DNA of 55,285 nucleotides from an uncultured Candidatus Saccharibacteria bacterium (GTDB taxonomy: Bacteria > Patescibacteriota > Minisyncoccia > Phycocordibacterales > UBA9973). Position 1 is the first letter of the stretch; each line of letters begins with the position of its first letter. The DNA is taken from assembly GCA_964498035.1 (NCBI GenBank), contig CAZCFW010000001.1:1-55285 (forward strand), read 5' to 3'. The notes beneath the pieces were generated by a model. The model did not search any database and was not told the origin of the DNA. It was given only the letters and a program-made list of their open reading frames with translations. This document shows, piece by piece, positions 2-10,277 of this stretch. A program made the translations under genes and the position numbers.

Positions 2-271
2 AGATATGGCACTAATTTTAATGAATCTGATAAAGTTATATTAAATGACTTGAGTTTAAGGTTACTAAAGAGTGACGTGCTTCAAGGTTCGATCAAGAAC
101 AATAGTAAAGATTCTGCAAAATTAAAATTCGATCAATTATTCCAAGACGAACTTGTTGGTGTGCTTGATAATCATTTTAATCTGTACCAAAAGCTCGATC
201 AAAGTCCAGAACTTAAAAAGTTCGTTCAAGAACGTGTGTTTGAGTATGTTGTTAGAAAAATTAATGCATAA
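2..271 (+). CDS. C-terminal fragment of a probable type I restriction enzyme R subunit (5' end outside window)
   Basis: Frame 2 is open from the first base of the window to TAA at 269-271. The tail ...KLKFDQLFQDELVGVLDNHFNLYQKLDQSPELKKFVQERVFEYV resembles the conserved helical C-terminus of HsdR-type proteins (recalled pattern, not searched). Confidence 0.45.
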   Translation, partial: RYGTNFNESDKVILNDLSLRLLKSDVLQGSIKNNSKDSAKLKFDQLFQDELVGVLDNHFNLYQKLDQSPELKKFVQERVFEYVVRKINA

Positions 272-1203: not shown

Positions 1204-1257
1204 AACATTCTGGTATTCTGCACCTGCCTGCCGGCAGGCAGGGAATACCAGAATGTT
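1204..1257. repeat. Palindromic element, long form (54 nt, nested hairpin)
   Basis: AACATTCTGGTATTC-TGCA-CCTGCCTGCCGGCAGGCAGG-GAATACCAGAATGTT. The outer 15-bp arms enclose a second perfect palindrome. It is identical to 1726-1779, with an A-run before and a T-run after. Confidence 0.9.
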
Positions 1258-1351
1258 TTTTATTTATTTATCTATCTCTATCATCCATATCTATTCTCTA
1301 ATTCGCTCGAATAGGCGAATAGTTTCAAAAACTACCAACTCTCCCCAAAAT

Positions 1352-1385
1352 AACATTCTCACATTCTTGAGAATGTGAGAATGTT
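1352..1385. repeat. Palindromic element, variant form (34 nt)
   Basis: AACATTCTCACATTC-TTGA-GAATGTGAGAATGTT. It has the same ends as the other copies but compensatory changes in both arms (TGGTA>TCACA). It lies just 3' of the minus-strand PhnA-domain gene and is followed on the minus strand by a T-rich run. Confidence 0.8.
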
Positions 1386-1430
1386 ATTTTGTATTATTTT
1401 GTACGCTTTGGACTATTTTGTTTCTAAGCA

Positions 1431-1670
1431 CTATGCCTTTTTGATAAATTCAGTGCGGAGGACGATGCCTTTCATGCCGTCGATATTGCACTCCACTAGC
1501 TCTTCATCATCTGTCAGGCGGATATTCTTGGCCTTGGTGCCTTTCTTGATCACTGTTGAGCTACCTTTTATCTTCAAATCTTTTATAAGGGTGATACTGT
1601 CGCCATGGGCTAGTATCGTGCCGTTCGCGTCGCGCACTATTATTACTTCATCTTCATTTTCTGTTTCCAT
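1431..1670 (-). CDS. PhnA-domain (YjdM C-terminal domain-like) protein, 79 aa
   Basis: METENEDEVIIVRDANGTILAHGDSITLIKDLKIKGSSTVIKKGTKAKNIRLTDDEELVECNIDG..IVLRTEFIKK matches the PhnA C-terminal domain pattern. I chose the ATG at 1670 because the longer ORF start lies inside the palindromic repeat. Confidence 0.75.
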   Translation of the reverse strand: METENEDEVIIVRDANGTILAHGDSITLIKDLKIKGSSTVIKKGTKAKNIRLTDDEELVECNIDGMKGIVLRTEFIKKA

Positions 1671-1725
1671 ATAACTCAAAGTATACACAATTTTAAAATT
1701 TCTGCACCTCTCAATTGTATTTAAT

Positions 1726-1779
1726 AACATTCTGGTATTCTGCACCTGCCTGCCGGCAGGCAGGGAATACCAGAATGTT
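1726..1779. repeat. Palindromic element, long form (54 nt), second copy
   Basis: Base-for-base identical to 1204-1257. Confidence 0.9.
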
Positions 1780-1797
1780 ATTTTGTTTTATTTCATA

Positions 1798-1806
1798 TGA
1801 TATAAT
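1798..1806 (+). promoter_or_regulatory. Extended -10 box TGATATAAT, 6 nt upstream of ATG 1813
   Basis: TGnTATAAT consensus. The 6-nt gap to the start codon implies a leaderless transcript. Confidence 0.55.
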
Positions 1807-1812
1807 AACTCC

Positions 1813-2298
1813 ATGAACTACTGGCTAATAAAATCCGAGGCGTCGTGCTACAGCATCGACGATTTGAAGAAAGATAAGAAGACGAGTTGGGAAGGCGTGA
1901 GGAACTACCAAGCGCGGAATTTCATGACGCAAGGGATGAAGGTGGGGGATAAGATTCTCTTCTGTCATTCAATAGGGTCAGACAAAACACCTGCGGGTGT
2001 GTACGGCGTTGCGCGCGTGGCAAGCGGAGCCCATGCCGACGAAACGCAGTTTGATAGGAAAGACGAACATTACGATCCCAAGGCCATAAAGCCAAAGGCT
2101 GGGAATGCTGGCAAAGTCATATGGCAATGCGTAGACGTGGCATTTGTATCGAAGTGGAAACACCCCGTCACCCTCGCAGAAATCCGCCTCGATCCCGCCC
2201 TCTCCGGCATGTCCCTCCTCGCCCCCGGCCAGCGCCTCTCCATAATGCCCGTCTCCGAAAAGCATTTTAATCATATTCTCAATTTATCCCAATCCTAA
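1813..2298 (+). CDS. EVE (PUA-like, DUF55) domain protein
   Basis: MNYWLIKSE..YSIDDLKKDKKTSWEGVRNYQARNFM..MKVGDKILFCHS is the characteristic EVE N-terminus. The gene is markedly G+C-richer than its surroundings. Confidence 0.8.
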   Translation: MNYWLIKSEASCYSIDDLKKDKKTSWEGVRNYQARNFMTQGMKVGDKILFCHSIGSDKTPAGVYGVARVASGAHADETQFDRKDEHYDPKAIKPKAGNAGKVIWQCVDVAFVSKWKHPVTLAEIRLDPALSGMSLLAPGQRLSIMPVSEKHFNHILNLSQS

Positions 2299-2305
2299 TC
2301 CAAAA

Positions 2306-2339
2306 AACATTCTGGTATTCTGCAGAATACCAGAATGTT
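2306..2339. repeat. Palindromic element, short form (34-nt perfect palindrome)
   Basis: AACATTCTGGTATTCTGCAGAATACCAGAATGTT. A-run before, T-run after. Identical to 3190-3223. Probably acts as a bidirectional terminator. Confidence 0.9.
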
Positions 2340-2359
2340 TTTTGCAATAATTATTATCG

Positions 2360-2368
2360 TGATATAAT
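2360..2368 (+). promoter_or_regulatory. Extended -10 box TGATATAAT, 6 nt upstream of ATG 2375
   Basis: TGnTATAAT consensus with a 6-nt gap to the start codon. Confidence 0.55.
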
Positions 2369-2374
2369 TGTATT

Positions 2375-2902
2375 ATGAAAGTATATGTAATTAGGCATGG
2401 TCAGACAGAGTTAAATAAACTAGGTATGATTAATGGATACTTAGATGATCCATTAGCTAGTGAAGGAATTGAGCAAGCAAAACTTGCAGCTGAGACATTG
2501 CCTAAAACCATTAAACATATTTATGTGTCATCGCTTGAGAGAGCTAAGCAAACTGCAAGTATCCTAAACGAGGTACTTAAAGTGCCTATGACTTTTCATG
2601 ATGAATTACGTGAGGTCAATTTTGGTGACCTTAACGGAACACCATTTTTAGATGAGTACAAAGAAAGACATAAAATGCTTGATTATGACTGGCGTCCAAG
2701 TGGAGAATCATTTGAAGATGTGAAAACAAGAGTTATAAAAATTTTAAATGTTATTAAAAATGAAAATGGTGATGGTGAAGCATTAATTGTGGCACATGGA
2801 GGTATTGTAAGATTGATGCATTTTCTTGAAACAGGTGAATATTTGGATGGAGTAGGAAATGCGTCTATTCAATCCTTTGACCTGGATAAAATATTAAAGT
2901 AA
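2375..2902 (+). CDS. Histidine phosphatase family (phosphoglycerate mutase-like) protein
   Basis: N-terminal VIRHGQTELN (RHG motif) and later AHGG motif. Confidence 0.8.
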   Translation: MKVYVIRHGQTELNKLGMINGYLDDPLASEGIEQAKLAAETLPKTIKHIYVSSLERAKQTASILNEVLKVPMTFHDELREVNFGDLNGTPFLDEYKERHKMLDYDWRPSGESFEDVKTRVIKILNVIKNENGDGEALIVAHGGIVRLMHFLETGEYLDGVGNASIQSFDLDKILK

Positions 2903-2921
2903 TATACAATATTTATTCATT

Positions 2922-3191
2922 ATGAAAACAGCAAAACAAATGGAAAGGCATTTTAAAGGTTTGGCTAATCATTGGCGAATAAATATTTTAATGCTGGTAA
3001 GTAAGAAGCCGAACATTACGCTCGATGGTATAGTGGCAGAGCTTAAGGGTAATTTCAAAACAATTTCAGAACATTCAAAAAAACTTGTGCAGGCAGGGTT
3101 ACTAAATAAAAAGTATGAAGGTCGAAGTGTCACTCATTCGCTTTCTCCATATGGCGAAAAAGTAATATCATTTATTAAGTCTTTCAAATAA
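2922..3191 (+). CDS. Small winged-helix (ArsR-like) transcriptional regulator
   Basis: 89 aa. The stretch GLANHWRINILMLV...ITLDGIVAELKGNFKTISEHSKKLVQAGLL fits an ArsR-type HTH. Confidence 0.55.
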   Translation: MKTAKQMERHFKGLANHWRINILMLVSKKPNITLDGIVAELKGNFKTISEHSKKLVQAGLLNKKYEGRSVTHSLSPYGEKVISFIKSFK

Positions 3192-3223
3192 CATTCTGGT
3201 ATTCTGCAGAATACCAGAATGTT
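3190..3223. repeat. Palindromic element, short form, second copy
   Basis: Identical to 2306-2339. It overlaps the TAA stop of the preceding gene by 2 nt. Confidence 0.9.
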
Positions 3224-3230
3224 TTAAAAT

Positions 3231-3497
3231 ATGAAAAAAGAAAAATCATTTACGGAAAAGGTTTTGGATATTGTACGGAAGATTCCAAAGGGTAGGACGA
3301 TGACGTATAAGGATGTGGCGAAGATGGCGGGGAGCCCTAGGGCGAGCCGAGCTGTGGGGAGCATCATGAAGGCAAACTATTTGCCTAATGTGCCGTGCCA
3401 CAGGGTGGTGATGAGTAGTGGAAATCCTGGTGAGTACAATCGCGGCGGTGTGAATGCTAAAATAGAATTACTAAAGAGTGAAGGCGCGATTAAATAA
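3231..3497 (+). CDS. MGMT-family methylated-DNA-protein-cysteine methyltransferase, stand-alone DNA-binding/active-site domain (88 aa)
   Basis: TYKDVAKMAGSPRASRAVGSIM...VPCHRVV retains the PCHR active-site cysteine motif. Confidence 0.8.
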   Translation: MKKEKSFTEKVLDIVRKIPKGRTMTYKDVAKMAGSPRASRAVGSIMKANYLPNVPCHRVVMSSGNPGEYNRGGVNAKIELLKSEGAIK

Positions 3498-3502
3498 ATT
3501 GT

Positions 3503-3784
3503 ATGCTGAAAAAGAAATTTACAATTAACGCAAAAGTTTGGCGGTGGCCGGGGGATGGAGGCTGGCACTTTGTGACGCTCGAGAAGAAGCTCTCGGAGAG
3601 TATAAGAAAGGTCTATACGAAAGGCTTCGTGAAGATTGAGGCGAAAGTGGGTAAGAGTACTTGGAAGACTTCGCTTTTCCCGCATAAGGAATCTGGCTAT
3701 TTGCTTTGTATAAGTAAAAAGATTCGCAAGTCTGAAGGCATAATGGAAGGTGACGAAATTAAAATCTCAATTGTGATACAATAA
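3503..3784 (+). CDS. DUF1905 family protein
   Basis: GGWHFVTL...VKIEAKVGKSTWKTSLFP...GYLLCISKKIRK...GDEIKISI fits the DUF1905 pattern (recalled). Confidence 0.6.
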   Translation: MLKKKFTINAKVWRWPGDGGWHFVTLEKKLSESIRKVYTKGFVKIEAKVGKSTWKTSLFPHKESGYLLCISKKIRKSEGIMEGDEIKISIVIQ

Positions 3785-3788
3785 ATTT

Positions 3789-4154
3789 ATGAAATTAAAC
3801 GAGCTTACAGAAGAAGAAAAGAGAGTGATACTCGAGAAGGGCACCGAGGCGCCTTTTGTGGGTGAGTATACGAATACGAAAGAGACTGGTGTGTATGTGT
3901 GCAAGCAGTGCGAGGCACCACTCTATAACTCGAAAGATAAATTTGAGAGTACTTGTGGATGGCCAAGCTTCGACCAAGAGATGGAGGGTGCACTCAAGAG
4001 AGATTCATATATTGACCCATACTTCGGGCAAGAAATCACTTGTGCGAATTGCGGTGGGCACCTCGGCCACATATTTAAGGGTGAGCACCTCACAGACAAA
4101 GACACTCGCCACTGCGTGAATTCTATCTCGCTCAAGTTTGTGCCTGGAAAATAA
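3789..4154 (+). CDS. msrB: Peptide-methionine (R)-S-oxide reductase
   Basis: GVYVCKQCEAPLY.S..KFES.CGWPSF...CANCGGHLGHIF...RHCVNS are the canonical SelR/MsrB motifs. Confidence 0.9.
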   Translation: MKLNELTEEEKRVILEKGTEAPFVGEYTNTKETGVYVCKQCEAPLYNSKDKFESTCGWPSFDQEMEGALKRDSYIDPYFGQEITCANCGGHLGHIFKGEHLTDKDTRHCVNSISLKFVPGK

Positions 4155-4157
4155 TTT

Positions 4158-4733
4158 GTGGAATATATAATTAAGAAAAATAGAAGATCGAAGAATTTGC
4201 GAATCATCGTGCACGAAGATGGCAGGGTGGTAGTCACGGCGCCTATGCGTGCGCCACTTTACCTTGTGAAGAAATTCGTCGAGAGCAGGAAGGAGTGGAT
4301 AGAAGAGAGGGTGGATAATTTCTTAAAGAAAAACATAGAGGAGGAGAATAAGAATGAAAAATTGGGTTTGCCGAAGAAGATGACGAAGGCTGAGCAAATA
4401 AAGGATTATAAAAAGCATAAAGAGAGTGCGAGGGAATTTGTGGAGAAGAGAATAGTGGAACTCAATAAATTTTATAATTTTGAATATGGAAAAATTGCAA
4501 TACGAAATCAGAGTACAAGGTGGGGGAGCTGTTCGAGGAAAAAGAATTTGAATTTTAATTATAAAATCGTAAAACTTCCTATTCGTATGGCGGACTACAT
4601 CATCGTGCATGAGCTGTGCCACCTCGCACATTTTAATCATTCAAAGAATTTCTGGAATTTGGTAGCCCAAGTTATACCAGAGCATTTGGCAATACGCAAG
4701 GAGCTTTACAAAATGGGAATTTCTAGTATTTAG
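4158..4733 (+). CDS. YgjP-like (DUF45 / M48-type) metal-dependent hydrolase
   Basis: GTG start. RWGSCS...LNFNYKIV..P....DYIIVHELCHL.HFNHSKNFW contains the HExxH motif typical of DUF45. Confidence 0.75.
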   Translation: MEYIIKKNRRSKNLRIIVHEDGRVVVTAPMRAPLYLVKKFVESRKEWIEERVDNFLKKNIEEENKNEKLGLPKKMTKAEQIKDYKKHKESAREFVEKRIVELNKFYNFEYGKIAIRNQSTRWGSCSRKKNLNFNYKIVKLPIRMADYIIVHELCHLAHFNHSKNFWNLVAQVIPEHLAIRKELYKMGISSI

Positions 4734-4838: not shown

Positions 4839-5165
4839 ATGGCAGCAAAAAAAGCAGTAGCAAAGAAGGTGGTCGCAAAAAAGGCAGCTCCTAAGAAAGC
4901 TGTGAAGAAAGCAGGAAATGCAAACTCAGCTTTCATGAGACCAAAGGTTGTGAGTGCAGCACTTCAGGCAATTGTTGGAAAGGGTCCACTTCCTACAACA
5001 GAAGTAGTAAAGAAGCTTTGGGTTTATATCAAGAAGAACGATCTTCAGAATCCTAAGAATAAGAGAAATATTATCGCAGATGATAAGCTACTCGTAGTAT
5101 TCGATGGAAAGAAAGAAATTTCAATGTTTGAAATGACAAAGTATGTAACAAAGAATCTTTCCTAA
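4839..5165 (+). CDS. SWIB/MDM2 domain protein with Lys/Ala-rich N-terminal tail
   Basis: AKKAVAKKVVAKKAAPKKAVKKA tail followed by PLPTTEVVKKLWVYIKKNDLQNPKNKRNIIADDKL..VF, a SWIB-like sequence. Confidence 0.75.
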   Translation: MAAKKAVAKKVVAKKAAPKKAVKKAGNANSAFMRPKVVSAALQAIVGKGPLPTTEVVKKLWVYIKKNDLQNPKNKRNIIADDKLLVVFDGKKEISMFEMTKYVTKNLS

Positions 5166-9539: not shown

Positions 9540-10277
9540 ATGAATAAGAATACTATCAAATTCATAAAGTCGCTACACCTCAAGAAATTCCGCCGTGAAG
9601 AGGGGATGTTCCTCGTGGAAGGTGAGAAAAGCATTGTCGAGCTACTGAAGTCCGACTTCGATATAGTAAATATTTTTATAACGCGCGAAATATTCGAAAA
9701 GTATCGCGAGGATTTCCGGAAGTTTGATGCAATATCTGAAATTGTGGAGGAAGAAGATCTTACAAAAGCTAGCACCCTTGAGTTCAACGACACTGGGATT
9801 GCGGTGGTAAGAGTGAAAGAGAATATAGAATTTAATACTCTAAATGAGATGGCGATAATGCTCGATGAAATTCGTGACCCTGGTAATTTGGGTACTATTA
9901 TCCGCACTGCGGACTGGTATGGAGTAAAGAAAATAATTTGCAGTGAGACGACCGCGGAATTTTATAATCCGAAAGTGATTGCAGCATCCATGGGCTCATT
10001 TACAAGAGTAGATATTTTTTATACTGATCTTAAAAATTATCTAGATAAGTATAAGGATGTGAAAGTTTTAGGAGCACTGCTTGATGGCAGTGATGCACAC
10101 ACATTCGAGTATCCTCACTCTGGAATACTCCTAATGGGTAATGAATCAAATGGCATACATGCTGAACTTTTGCCTTATATCACAGACAAGATTACAATAC
10201 CTCGCTATGGTAAAGCTGAATCGCTCAATGTCTCCATGGCAACTGGCATCATACTAGACAATTGGAAAAGAAAATAA
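9540..10277 (+). CDS. TrmH/SpoU family RNA 2'-O-methyltransferase (RlmB-like, with N-terminal substrate-binding domain)
   Basis: LDEIRDPGNLGTIIRTADWYG, LLMGNESNGI and IP..GKAESLNVSMATGI are SpoU motifs 1-3. Confidence 0.8.
   Translation: MNKNTIKFIKSLHLKKFRREEGMFLVEGEKSIVELLKSDFDIVNIFITREIFEKYREDFRKFDAISEIVEEEDLTKASTLEFNDTGIAVVRVKENIEFNTLNEMAIMLDEIRDPGNLGTIIRTADWYGVKKIICSETTAEFYNPKVIAASMGSFTRVDIFYTDLKNYLDKYKDVKVLGALLDGSDAHTFEYPHSGILLMGNESNGIHAELLPYITDKITIPRYGKAESLNVSMATGIILDNWKRK

Follow-up and report, generated by a model that had tools for sequence, protein, structure and literature searches.

The window studied here is the first 55 kb (55,285 nucleotides) of contig C1 in an assembly of an uncultured Candidatus Saccharibacteria bacterium (G000; 768 kb in 51 contigs, 38% G+C, 87% complete). 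Five copies of a short palindromic element lie between positions 1204 and 3223 of the window, and a gene for a small ArsR-family protein lies inside this array. All 17 of the 17 genes of this ArsR subfamily that were found in the genus are bracketed on their 5' and 3' sides by a cognate palindrome, and the palindrome family is lineage-specific, differing between the lineages of ArsR paralogs. These features suggest that the palindrome is probably the cognate site of the ArsR-type protein, that gene and site form a portable pair, and that the copies of the site double as recombination-prone repeats. An earlier note on this DNA, made from the letters alone, described the palindromes without their link to the ArsR-family gene.

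The ArsR-family gene (2922-3191, + strand) encodes a winged-helix protein of 89 aa without cysteine. Pfam HTH_5 matches the protein with 25.2 bits (cut-off 22), an NCBIfam ArsR/SmtB subfamily model matches it below cut-off, and a profile of 17 homologs matches HlyU, CadC and CzrA as the best solved structures (1e-12 to 1e-8). The protein is a true relative of the ArsR/SmtB fold. Orthologs were sought by a protein search, blind to the element, in a comparison set of 93 genomes of the genus, of which G086 is the closest relative of G000. Close orthologs (at least 51% identity) are present in 7 genomes, and in 7 of 7 the element lies no more than 60 nt away on both sides of the gene. Ten more distant homologs likewise have a palindrome on each side, with the same architecture and another sequence; examples are TATTCTATAATTCTATAGAATTATAGAATA, ACATTTTG(T)CATTTTGCAAAATG, AATTCTTATTCTAATGTTCGTTAGAACATTAGAATAAGAATT and TATTCTCTAATTCGCTCGAATAGGCGAATA, the last of which is designated F2. 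That the protein lineage and the site family change together is expected if the protein recognizes the site, and it provides indirect support for the predicted binding of the protein to the palindrome. In other lineages an ArsR gene lies within 120 nt of the element in 17 of 80 loci.

The element is 30-36 bp long, and its core is CATTC-N4-ATTC-N4-GAAT-N4-GAATG. Four CATTC/GAATG pentamers, two per arm and 8 nt apart, are arranged in a 13-4-13 layout around a 4-nt center, which is TGCA, TCAA/TTGA, TCGA, TTAA or TATA; a copy starts (A)ACATTC. The core pattern was found in 12 of the 93 genus genomes with 1-7 copies in each, and a reversed-pattern control gave 0 matches. At least 120 such stretches occur in species-representative genomes, mostly of Patescibacteria and in many named classes. 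Among 183 copies the spacer pairs are complementary in 83-95% of cases, against 38-77% after shuffling, and about 3 nt beyond the core the symmetry is lost. The pentamers are invariant while the spacers covary. The arms match perfectly in 95 copies and do not in 37. Rfam gave no family above threshold, only spurious miRNA-hairpin matches, and literature searches that included the text of the motif returned no description of a palindrome-ArsR system. An SOS box was rejected because the motif is unlike GAAC-N4-GTTC, and a phage origin was rejected on finding 1 match among 2.9 million viral contigs.

The last codons of the ArsR gene, with its stop codon, lie within the copy on its 3' side. On the 5' side, a copy lies 15-53 nt before the ArsR start codon in 6 genomes; in G100 and G075 a center of TTGAGA stands 16-17 nt before TGnTATAAT, followed by the ArsR start codon. 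In the window, a histidine phosphatase gene (HisPhos; 2375-2902, + strand, domain match) precedes the ArsR gene. A promoter scan placed the best promoter-like site of the region before this pair (TTTGCA-16-TGaTATAAT, 2341-2368, + strand), and the upstream palindrome copy, E4, abuts its -35. The palindrome probably serves as an operator and as a hairpin terminator or insulator. In the mechanism we propose, the protein would bind the four pentamers as two dimers, and binding would repress the E4-abutting promoter (autoregulation) together with promoters beside other copies. As RNA, the hairpins may stop or stabilize transcripts where A/T runs flank them. In one ArsR branch from other Patescibacteria (loci L111, L123, L146, L148 and L156) the protein ends in ...FLRMLE or ...FLRILE, and these residues come from the center and right arm of the palindrome on the 3' side, where the element is read in a second frame.

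The arm AACATTCTGGTATTC has eight matches in the window, which belong to four perfect palindromes, each counted on both strands (1204/1243, 1726/1765, 2306/2325 and 3190/3209). By chance 0.20 matches are expected, and 0 of 100 shuffles reached eight. The earlier note had reported five copies of one family at 1204-3223, two of them identical 54-nt forms and one a variant with compensatory changes, and each of these statements is borne out. E1 (1204-1257) and E3 (1726-1779) are the identical 54-nt copies; they consist of the 34-nt form with an inner palindrome, CCTGCCTGCCGGCAGGCAGG, inserted between the center TGCA and the right arm, so that a GC-rich 20-mer is nested at 1223-1242 and 1745-1764, respectively. 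E2 (1352-1385, center TTGA, in a perfect palindrome that reaches 1346-1391) has complementary changes in both arms, GGT/ACC to CAC/GTG. E4 (2306-2339, in a palindrome of 2301-2344 with A6/T6 flanks) and E5 (3190-3223) are identical perfect 34-nt copies and form the left and right brackets of the HisPhos-ArsR unit. The copies are spaced by 100-900 bp and the intervals hold genes, for which reason a CRISPR-like array was rejected. The whole assembly has 7 copies; the other two lie on contig C20, after a metK-like gene (named from its C-terminal sequence only), and at C28:3302-3335, where a decayed copy inside the TsaC/YrdC gene is the only within-gene copy of this genome.

The note had also placed each copy directly after a stop codon. 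That is correct for E4, 8 nt after the stop codon of an EVE-domain gene, and for E5, which overlaps the TAA stop codon of the ArsR gene, and incorrect for the other three. E1 lies 90 nt past the nearest stop codon and E2 46 nt past that of a PhnA gene, and E3 lies between the start codons of two divergent genes, PhnA (start at 1670, - strand) and EVE (start at 1813, + strand). These positions bear on the reading that the copies are no more than bidirectional intrinsic terminators of an ordinary kind, which local duplication or gene conversion has made alike. A-run/T-run flanks at E1, E2 and E4 (T6 after E1 and E4), a terminator-like score of E2 in a scan, predicted RNA folding energies of -20 to -41 kcal/mol and a median distance of about 10 nt from the upstream stop codon across all copies are consistent with it. 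Termination of this kind is possible for some copies, as the note had proposed, but not for E3 between two gene starts, and E5 is followed by T4 only. By the criteria for rho-independent terminators the stems of the element are AT-rich but long. In an inventory of 127 perfect hairpins in G000, the usual terminator has a unique GC-rich stem between an A-run and a T-run; about 120 hairpins have such unique stems, so the element, with 7 copies, was rejected as the generic terminator of this genome, a case that the note had wanted counted genome-wide. A 30-nt core common to many Patescibacteria classes and also present inside genes, with invariant pentamers and covarying spacers, makes terminators of no further meaning highly unlikely.

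The genomic contexts of the copies are mixed. The 96 intergenic copies lie between 58 tandem, 26 convergent and 12 divergent gene pairs. Where the center is asymmetric it reads TCAA in 16 and TTGA in 9 copies on the sense strand, which is no clear bias, and a strand-specific function was rejected. The variety of contexts and the lack of strand bias agree poorly with a pure operator or a pure terminator, and they fit DNA that lands where it is tolerated. Neighboring genes other than ArsR do not recur; NUDIX, RhuM and TsaC genes were seen in small numbers only.

The copies also coincide with boundaries of composition. G+C content at third codon positions (GC3) was ranked against the 758 open reading frames (ORFs) of G000. 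The tail of a HsdR gene and a GIY-YIG gene, to the left of the array, have GC3 of 18-26% (2nd-15th percentile). PhnA and EVE have 53-63% (99th-100th percentile), HisPhos and ArsR 22-29% (5th-29th percentile), and the four genes that follow E5 have 48-53% (97th-99th percentile). The three switches are located exactly at E1/E2, E4 and E5, so the low-GC3 HisPhos-ArsR pair lies between the identical copies E4 and E5 and interrupts a block of high GC3. The earlier note had inferred units of differing composition separated by the copies, and the difference is stronger than it had stated. Its counts of 63 G+C in 90 nt for EVE and 37 in 60 for the MGMT gene are correct, while its histidine phosphatase stretch has 19 in 60 rather than 21. 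The high-GC3 genes around HisPhos-ArsR read as one horizontally acquired block. On this reading E4 and E5 bracket a low-GC3 unit inside that block, and the other copies mark the remaining joints of a patchwork of imported genes.

The individual genes of the region are as follows. The 3' end of the HsdR gene, for the R subunit of a type I restriction system, occupies 2-271 (+ strand); the gene begins on contig C20, the last 55 nt of which (C20:14544-14598) are identical to positions 1-55 of the window. C20 can be joined upstream of C1, and the joint restores a complete HsdR gene of 989 aa with HSDR_N, ResIII and T1R_D3-like domains. It is followed by a gene with GIY-YIG and DUF4357 domains (278-1114, + strand, GC3 18%), which forms the left flank of the array. 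The type I restriction-modification tail and the GIY-YIG gene named in the earlier note are thereby confirmed. The gene with a PhnA/YjdM domain (1431-1670, - strand, GC3 53%, domain match) lies between the identical 54-nt copies. The EVE-domain gene (1813-2298, + strand, domain match) has a G+C content of 51.6% and a GC3 of 63%, both the highest of the 758 ORFs; an exact-protein look-up of its product returned no record. HisPhos has a GC3 of 22%. The high-GC3 block at 3231-4733 comprises an MGMT-like gene (3231-3497), a DUF1905 gene (3503-3784), an MsrB gene (3789-4154) and a YgjP-like gene (4158-4733), all on the + strand. Upstream of E1, a conserved stretch of about 75 nt (1125-1200; GGGATTTTAAAAGACGCTGGGATGCC...GAAATAG) contains an open frame, perhaps what is left of the 3' end of a gene. 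G086 has this stretch twice, once on either side of an extra RhuM/Fic gene, and a RAYT-type palindrome directly precedes the stretch there.

Comparison with G086 reveals differences by unit at this locus, bounded by the element, as the note had suggested looking for in relatives. The order in G086 is a variant palindrome, PhnA (- strand), a palindrome, EVE, and then DUF1905-MsrB-YgjP; the shared genes are 85-91% identical to those of G000 and have the same composition pattern. DUF1905 through YgjP are syntenic, and MGMT is without a counterpart at that position in G086. Between EVE and DUF1905, G086 has a hypothetical gene, an F2-type ArsR gene and a gene for a CmpB-like membrane protein, separated by F2 copies. 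Its extra RhuM/Fic gene lies between duplicated modules that each consist of a leader, the 34-nt element, F2 and a variant element.

These results also bear on whether the mosaic is an assembly artefact, made by joining contigs from different organisms at a short repeat that they have in common. The array does stand at a contig end, since window position 1 is the start of C1; the G+C jumps fall exactly at repeats; and a public 905-nt Logan contig breaks inside both 34-nt copies. That same contig, from an independent run, holds HisPhos and ArsR contiguously. Moreover, the independent genome G086 has the same order and composition pattern, and the 55-nt overlap of C20 and C1 points to an assembly k-mer of probably at least 55, longer than every repeat copy. 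An artefact is therefore extremely improbable.

The copies, and the unit that they bracket, differ in position between genomes. The ArsR loci of G100 and G075 share a single block of 352 nt at 86% identity with unrelated flanks, and this block runs between the outer edges of the two palindromes. G086 has a copy between MsrB and YgjP without a counterpart in G000, with 45-nt flanks on each side that are otherwise identical. An exact TGGT-type core was found in 12 metagenome contigs, in which the ArsR protein is only 63-64% identical and the other genes are unrelated. Copies also lie in frame within genes, always in the frame HSxILxNVxM: in TsaC in four genus genomes and one Nomurabacteria metagenome-assembled genome, in TsaD in two genomes, where the protein is 6 aa longer than in G000, and in ArgS (+8 aa). 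These features suggest that the site-gene-site unit relocates as a block and that solo sites are gained and lost at gene ends and in frame within genes. The TsaC/YrdC protein of G052 (locus L205, contig C17) is 9 aa shorter at the site of the in-frame palindrome of its relatives and reads GATTCAAATGT, a sequence that resembles the outer two pentamers joined by deletion of the center, as expected from palindrome instability.

About a quarter of the copies have arms mismatched to each other. Each arm of the hybrid copies (on C20 of G000 and in G050, G069, G004, G075 and G100) is a variant found elsewhere in the same genome, and in the orthologous metK-adjacent copies of G000 and G086 one whole arm and the center are swapped. 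Copies thus appear to exchange arms, and identical palindromes of 34-54 bp would be substrates for recombination, gene conversion, inversion and deletion, leading to the unit-wise differences between relatives. The PhnA segment (1258-1725), which carries the sole minus-strand gene of the region, lies between the identical 54-nt palindromes. An inversion between the two copies would yield this orientation, and as the orientation is the same in G086, any such inversion would be old.

Hybrid copies look like products of central exchange, and they invite the reading that the palindromes are core sites of site-specific recombination (integron-, lox/FRT- or pdif-like) by which gene cassettes are inserted and excised, with crossover in the central 4-6 bp, the enzyme being the host Xer-like recombinase or one missing from the assembly. 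The 34-bp size and the 13-4/8-13 layout resemble lox/FRT-type sites; identical copies bracket HisPhos-ArsR in G000 and an EcoRI-methylase/GmrSD-HNH island of 5.2 kb in G054; and duplicated palindrome modules stand on both sides of the extra gene of G086. Other results count against this. G000 has one tyrosine recombinase, with an Xer-like sequence and located on contig C27, and no serine recombinase was found in this 87% complete assembly. No tyrosine recombinase was found in C20 or C1 beside the array, and about 100 loci of the element showed no recurrent neighboring recombinase or transposase. In addition, most centers are palindromic (TGCA, TCGA or TTAA), which gives a site without direction, and in-frame copies in unique genes cannot come from exchange between sites. 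The palindromes are perfect and lack attC features; an AAC/GTT is present in the G000 copies, the flanks of which are A/T runs, and other genomes have GAC...GTC or TTC...GAA. An integron was rejected on these grounds. The cassette-capture system with a recombinase of its own that the earlier note had put forward finds no support, and site-specific recombination in any of these forms is very unlikely.

The island in G054 was seen at locus L049. On contig C22, identical element copies at 5029-5058 and 10238-10267 bound the 5.2 kb beside tRNA genes. Three products are encoded in this restriction island: an EcoRI-like adenine methylase, a nuclease of the GmrSD-N/HNH type and a protein of 632 aa. 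The majority of the remaining genus genomes have about 100-300 nt between the tRNA genes and the far flank, with the relative orientation reversed; the difference between G054 and its relatives could not be reduced to one event.

Several observations weigh against the protein-site pair. In G054 (95% complete) the element is present in six perfect copies and a gene of the ArsR subfamily is absent, and G086 (98% complete) has six copies and only the F2-type ArsR paralog. The three 34-nt copies in G086 match those of G000 at all 102 nt, in neighboring DNA that differs by 3-15%, which indicates that copies are kept or homogenized even when the partner protein is absent. For the operator reading this is the chief difficulty. 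The 26 of 96 intergenic copies between convergent genes have no promoter there to control and others lie inside genes, so many copies cannot be working operators. For E5, 7 nt before the MGMT start codon and with T4 only, neither a terminator nor an operator role is evident. No insertion mechanism was identified, and no target-site duplication was clear, which a single clean filled/empty pair does not resolve. Finally, the genomes within one genus are kin, and the counts overstate independence.

Part of this evidence would be accounted for if the element were a purely selfish REP/MITE-like hairpin (repetitive extragenic palindromic, or miniature inverted-repeat transposable, element), copied in trans by some enzyme or through replication template switching, with ArsR as a passenger that regulates nothing through the copies. 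Effects on the cell would then be limited to side effects as terminators or mRNA stabilizers. The occurrence of copies in all intergenic contexts (with convergent pairs exceeding divergent ones) and in frame in housekeeping genes, their presence/absence polymorphism at identical flanks, the six perfect copies of G054 without an ArsR-subfamily gene, the near-identity of copies across distant lineages and the high stability of the hairpins all agree with this. A passenger, however, would not have palindromes on both sides in 17 of 17 cases or its own palindrome family in each paralog lineage, and its C-terminal codons and stop codon would not be written into the 3' copy. The copy number is very low and no transposase is linked to the element. 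We consider a selfish hairpin of this kind unlikely.

The family resembles REP/MITE elements in behavior, as the note had suggested, but not in membership: it lacks both a link to a REP-associated tyrosine transposase (RAYT) and a GTAG head, and it has few copies per genome. The note's proposed search for a tyrosine recombinase or a Y1/REP transposase nearby found none linked to the element. G000 has two RAYT-like (Y1/HUH) genes, at C4:27796-28579 and C4:48768-49277, which are accompanied by palindromes unlike the element, GGCGCAAGGACTGTCCTTGCGCC and CCCACAGGTCTGACCTATGGG, one family per gene. RAYT-like (Y1) genes are present in 75 of the 93 genomes; no Y1 match was found in G100 (98% complete) despite its 3 element copies. 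Dependence on RAYT was rejected, because the RAYT-like genes of G000 are flanked by other palindromes and G100 has the element without Y1. The palindrome CCCACAGGTCTGACCTATGGG is also translated, as HRSDLW, twice inside the second RAYT-like ORF.

A bolder form of the protein-site pair can be conceived, in which site-ArsR-site is a minimal mobile module. The non-catalytic winged-helix protein would mark its own sites, and host machinery (through recombination, hairpin processing or template switching) would copy, insert or exchange them, leaving solo sites behind like solo long terminal repeats or REPs. We regard this as unlikely; if true, the element would both control genes and, across Patescibacteria, drive the mosaicism of islands.

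Two further palindromes occur within the array. The nested 20-nt GC-rich palindrome, CCTGCCTGCCGG[C/T]AGGCAGG, constitutes a separate repeat family, present in 17 of the 93 genus genomes with 1-7 copies each, mostly alone at gene ends. In G000 (twice) and in G075 it occupies the same place in the center of the larger palindrome, and it is absent from the orthologous copies of G086, including that of E1. It also lies in the loop of unrelated hairpins at G000:C5:32447-32466 and at other Patescibacteria loci. The second palindrome is a copy of F2 (1292-1321), a family of the same architecture that brackets another ArsR paralog in G086. There, F2 has seven copies, three of them around that paralog. 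G000 has two orphan copies, the second at C20:71-100 with 2 positions different, and the F2-type paralog was not found in the 87% complete assembly. Complementarity between the F2 arms is incomplete, even though the copies hardly differ from one another.

The ultra-small Patescibacteria make up a large share of bacterial diversity, are barely cultivated, and their gene control and genome plasticity are almost uncharted. A protein-site pair conserved across the superphylum would be among the first candidate regulons in the group, and it is simple to test, as the protein has 89 aa and the site 34 bp. A portable site that occurs at the joints of imported genes and in essential enzymes links regulation, repeat biology and island evolution. 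Palindromes of this kind break short-read assemblies, and the pair could serve as an orthogonal repressor-operator tool for Saccharibacteria genetics.

Integrons consist of IntI, attI and Pc, with attC sites that have extrahelical bases and RYYYAAC/GTTRRRY ends, and the pdif (Xer) modules of Acinetobacter plasmids have 11-6-11 arms. Like attC and pdif sites, the element is short and symmetric, can stand directly after stop codons, separates small genes of varied origin and is accompanied by unit-wise differences between relatives. Unlike attC, it is not associated with IntI, attI or Pc, and its copies are perfect palindromes without extrahelical bases or RYYYAAC/GTTRRRY ends; unlike both, it separates genes in both orientations with promoters of their own, and its arms are not of the 11-6-11 dif-like type. 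Rickettsia palindromic elements, reportedly described by Ogata et al. in 2000, are 100-150 bp long and inserted in frame in protein genes. The in-frame copies in housekeeping genes, always in one reading frame, are similar, as an analogy and not as membership: the present element is about 30-36 bp long, unrelated in sequence, superphylum-wide and accompanied by a partner protein gene.

REP/REPIN-RAYT systems are short (20-40 bp) palindromic hairpin repeats at gene ends that bracket the gene of a presumed recognition protein, have tens to hundreds of copies per genome and share a GTAG/CGTC head (Bertels and Rainey 2011, PMC3116915 and PMC3337134; Di Nocera et al. 2013, PMC3733652). The element likewise consists of palindromes, of 34-36 bp and mostly between genes with some inside them; family-specific copies bracket the gene of a presumed recognition protein, and copies are homogenized within a genome. 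It differs in that the bracketed gene encodes a winged-helix binder and not a HUH/Y1 nuclease, in having 1-7 copies per genome as single palindromes rather than REP doublets and without a GTAG/CGTC head, and in that its presence is unrelated to that of RAYT.

ArsR/SmtB repressors, including SmtB, CzrA and CadC and the non-metal HlyU, BigR, SdpR and NolR, are autoregulated and have long inverted-repeat operators of the '12-2-12' type. This operator layout was reportedly set out by Busenlehner, Pennella and Giedroc in 2003. Compared with it, the system described here differs in its 89-aa protein without sensing residues and without cysteine, in the second copy that always follows the ArsR gene and encodes its last codons, and in the perfect palindromes with covarying, non-conserved spacers. 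Copies of the element also occur between convergent genes, in frame inside genes and in genomes without the protein, and the whole site-gene-site unit appears to relocate. The likenesses are a small winged-helix protein of the same family, a site of comparable dimensions and symmetry (13-4-13, four half-sites) that stands directly before its own gene and touches the promoter, and paralogs that each have their own variant of the site.

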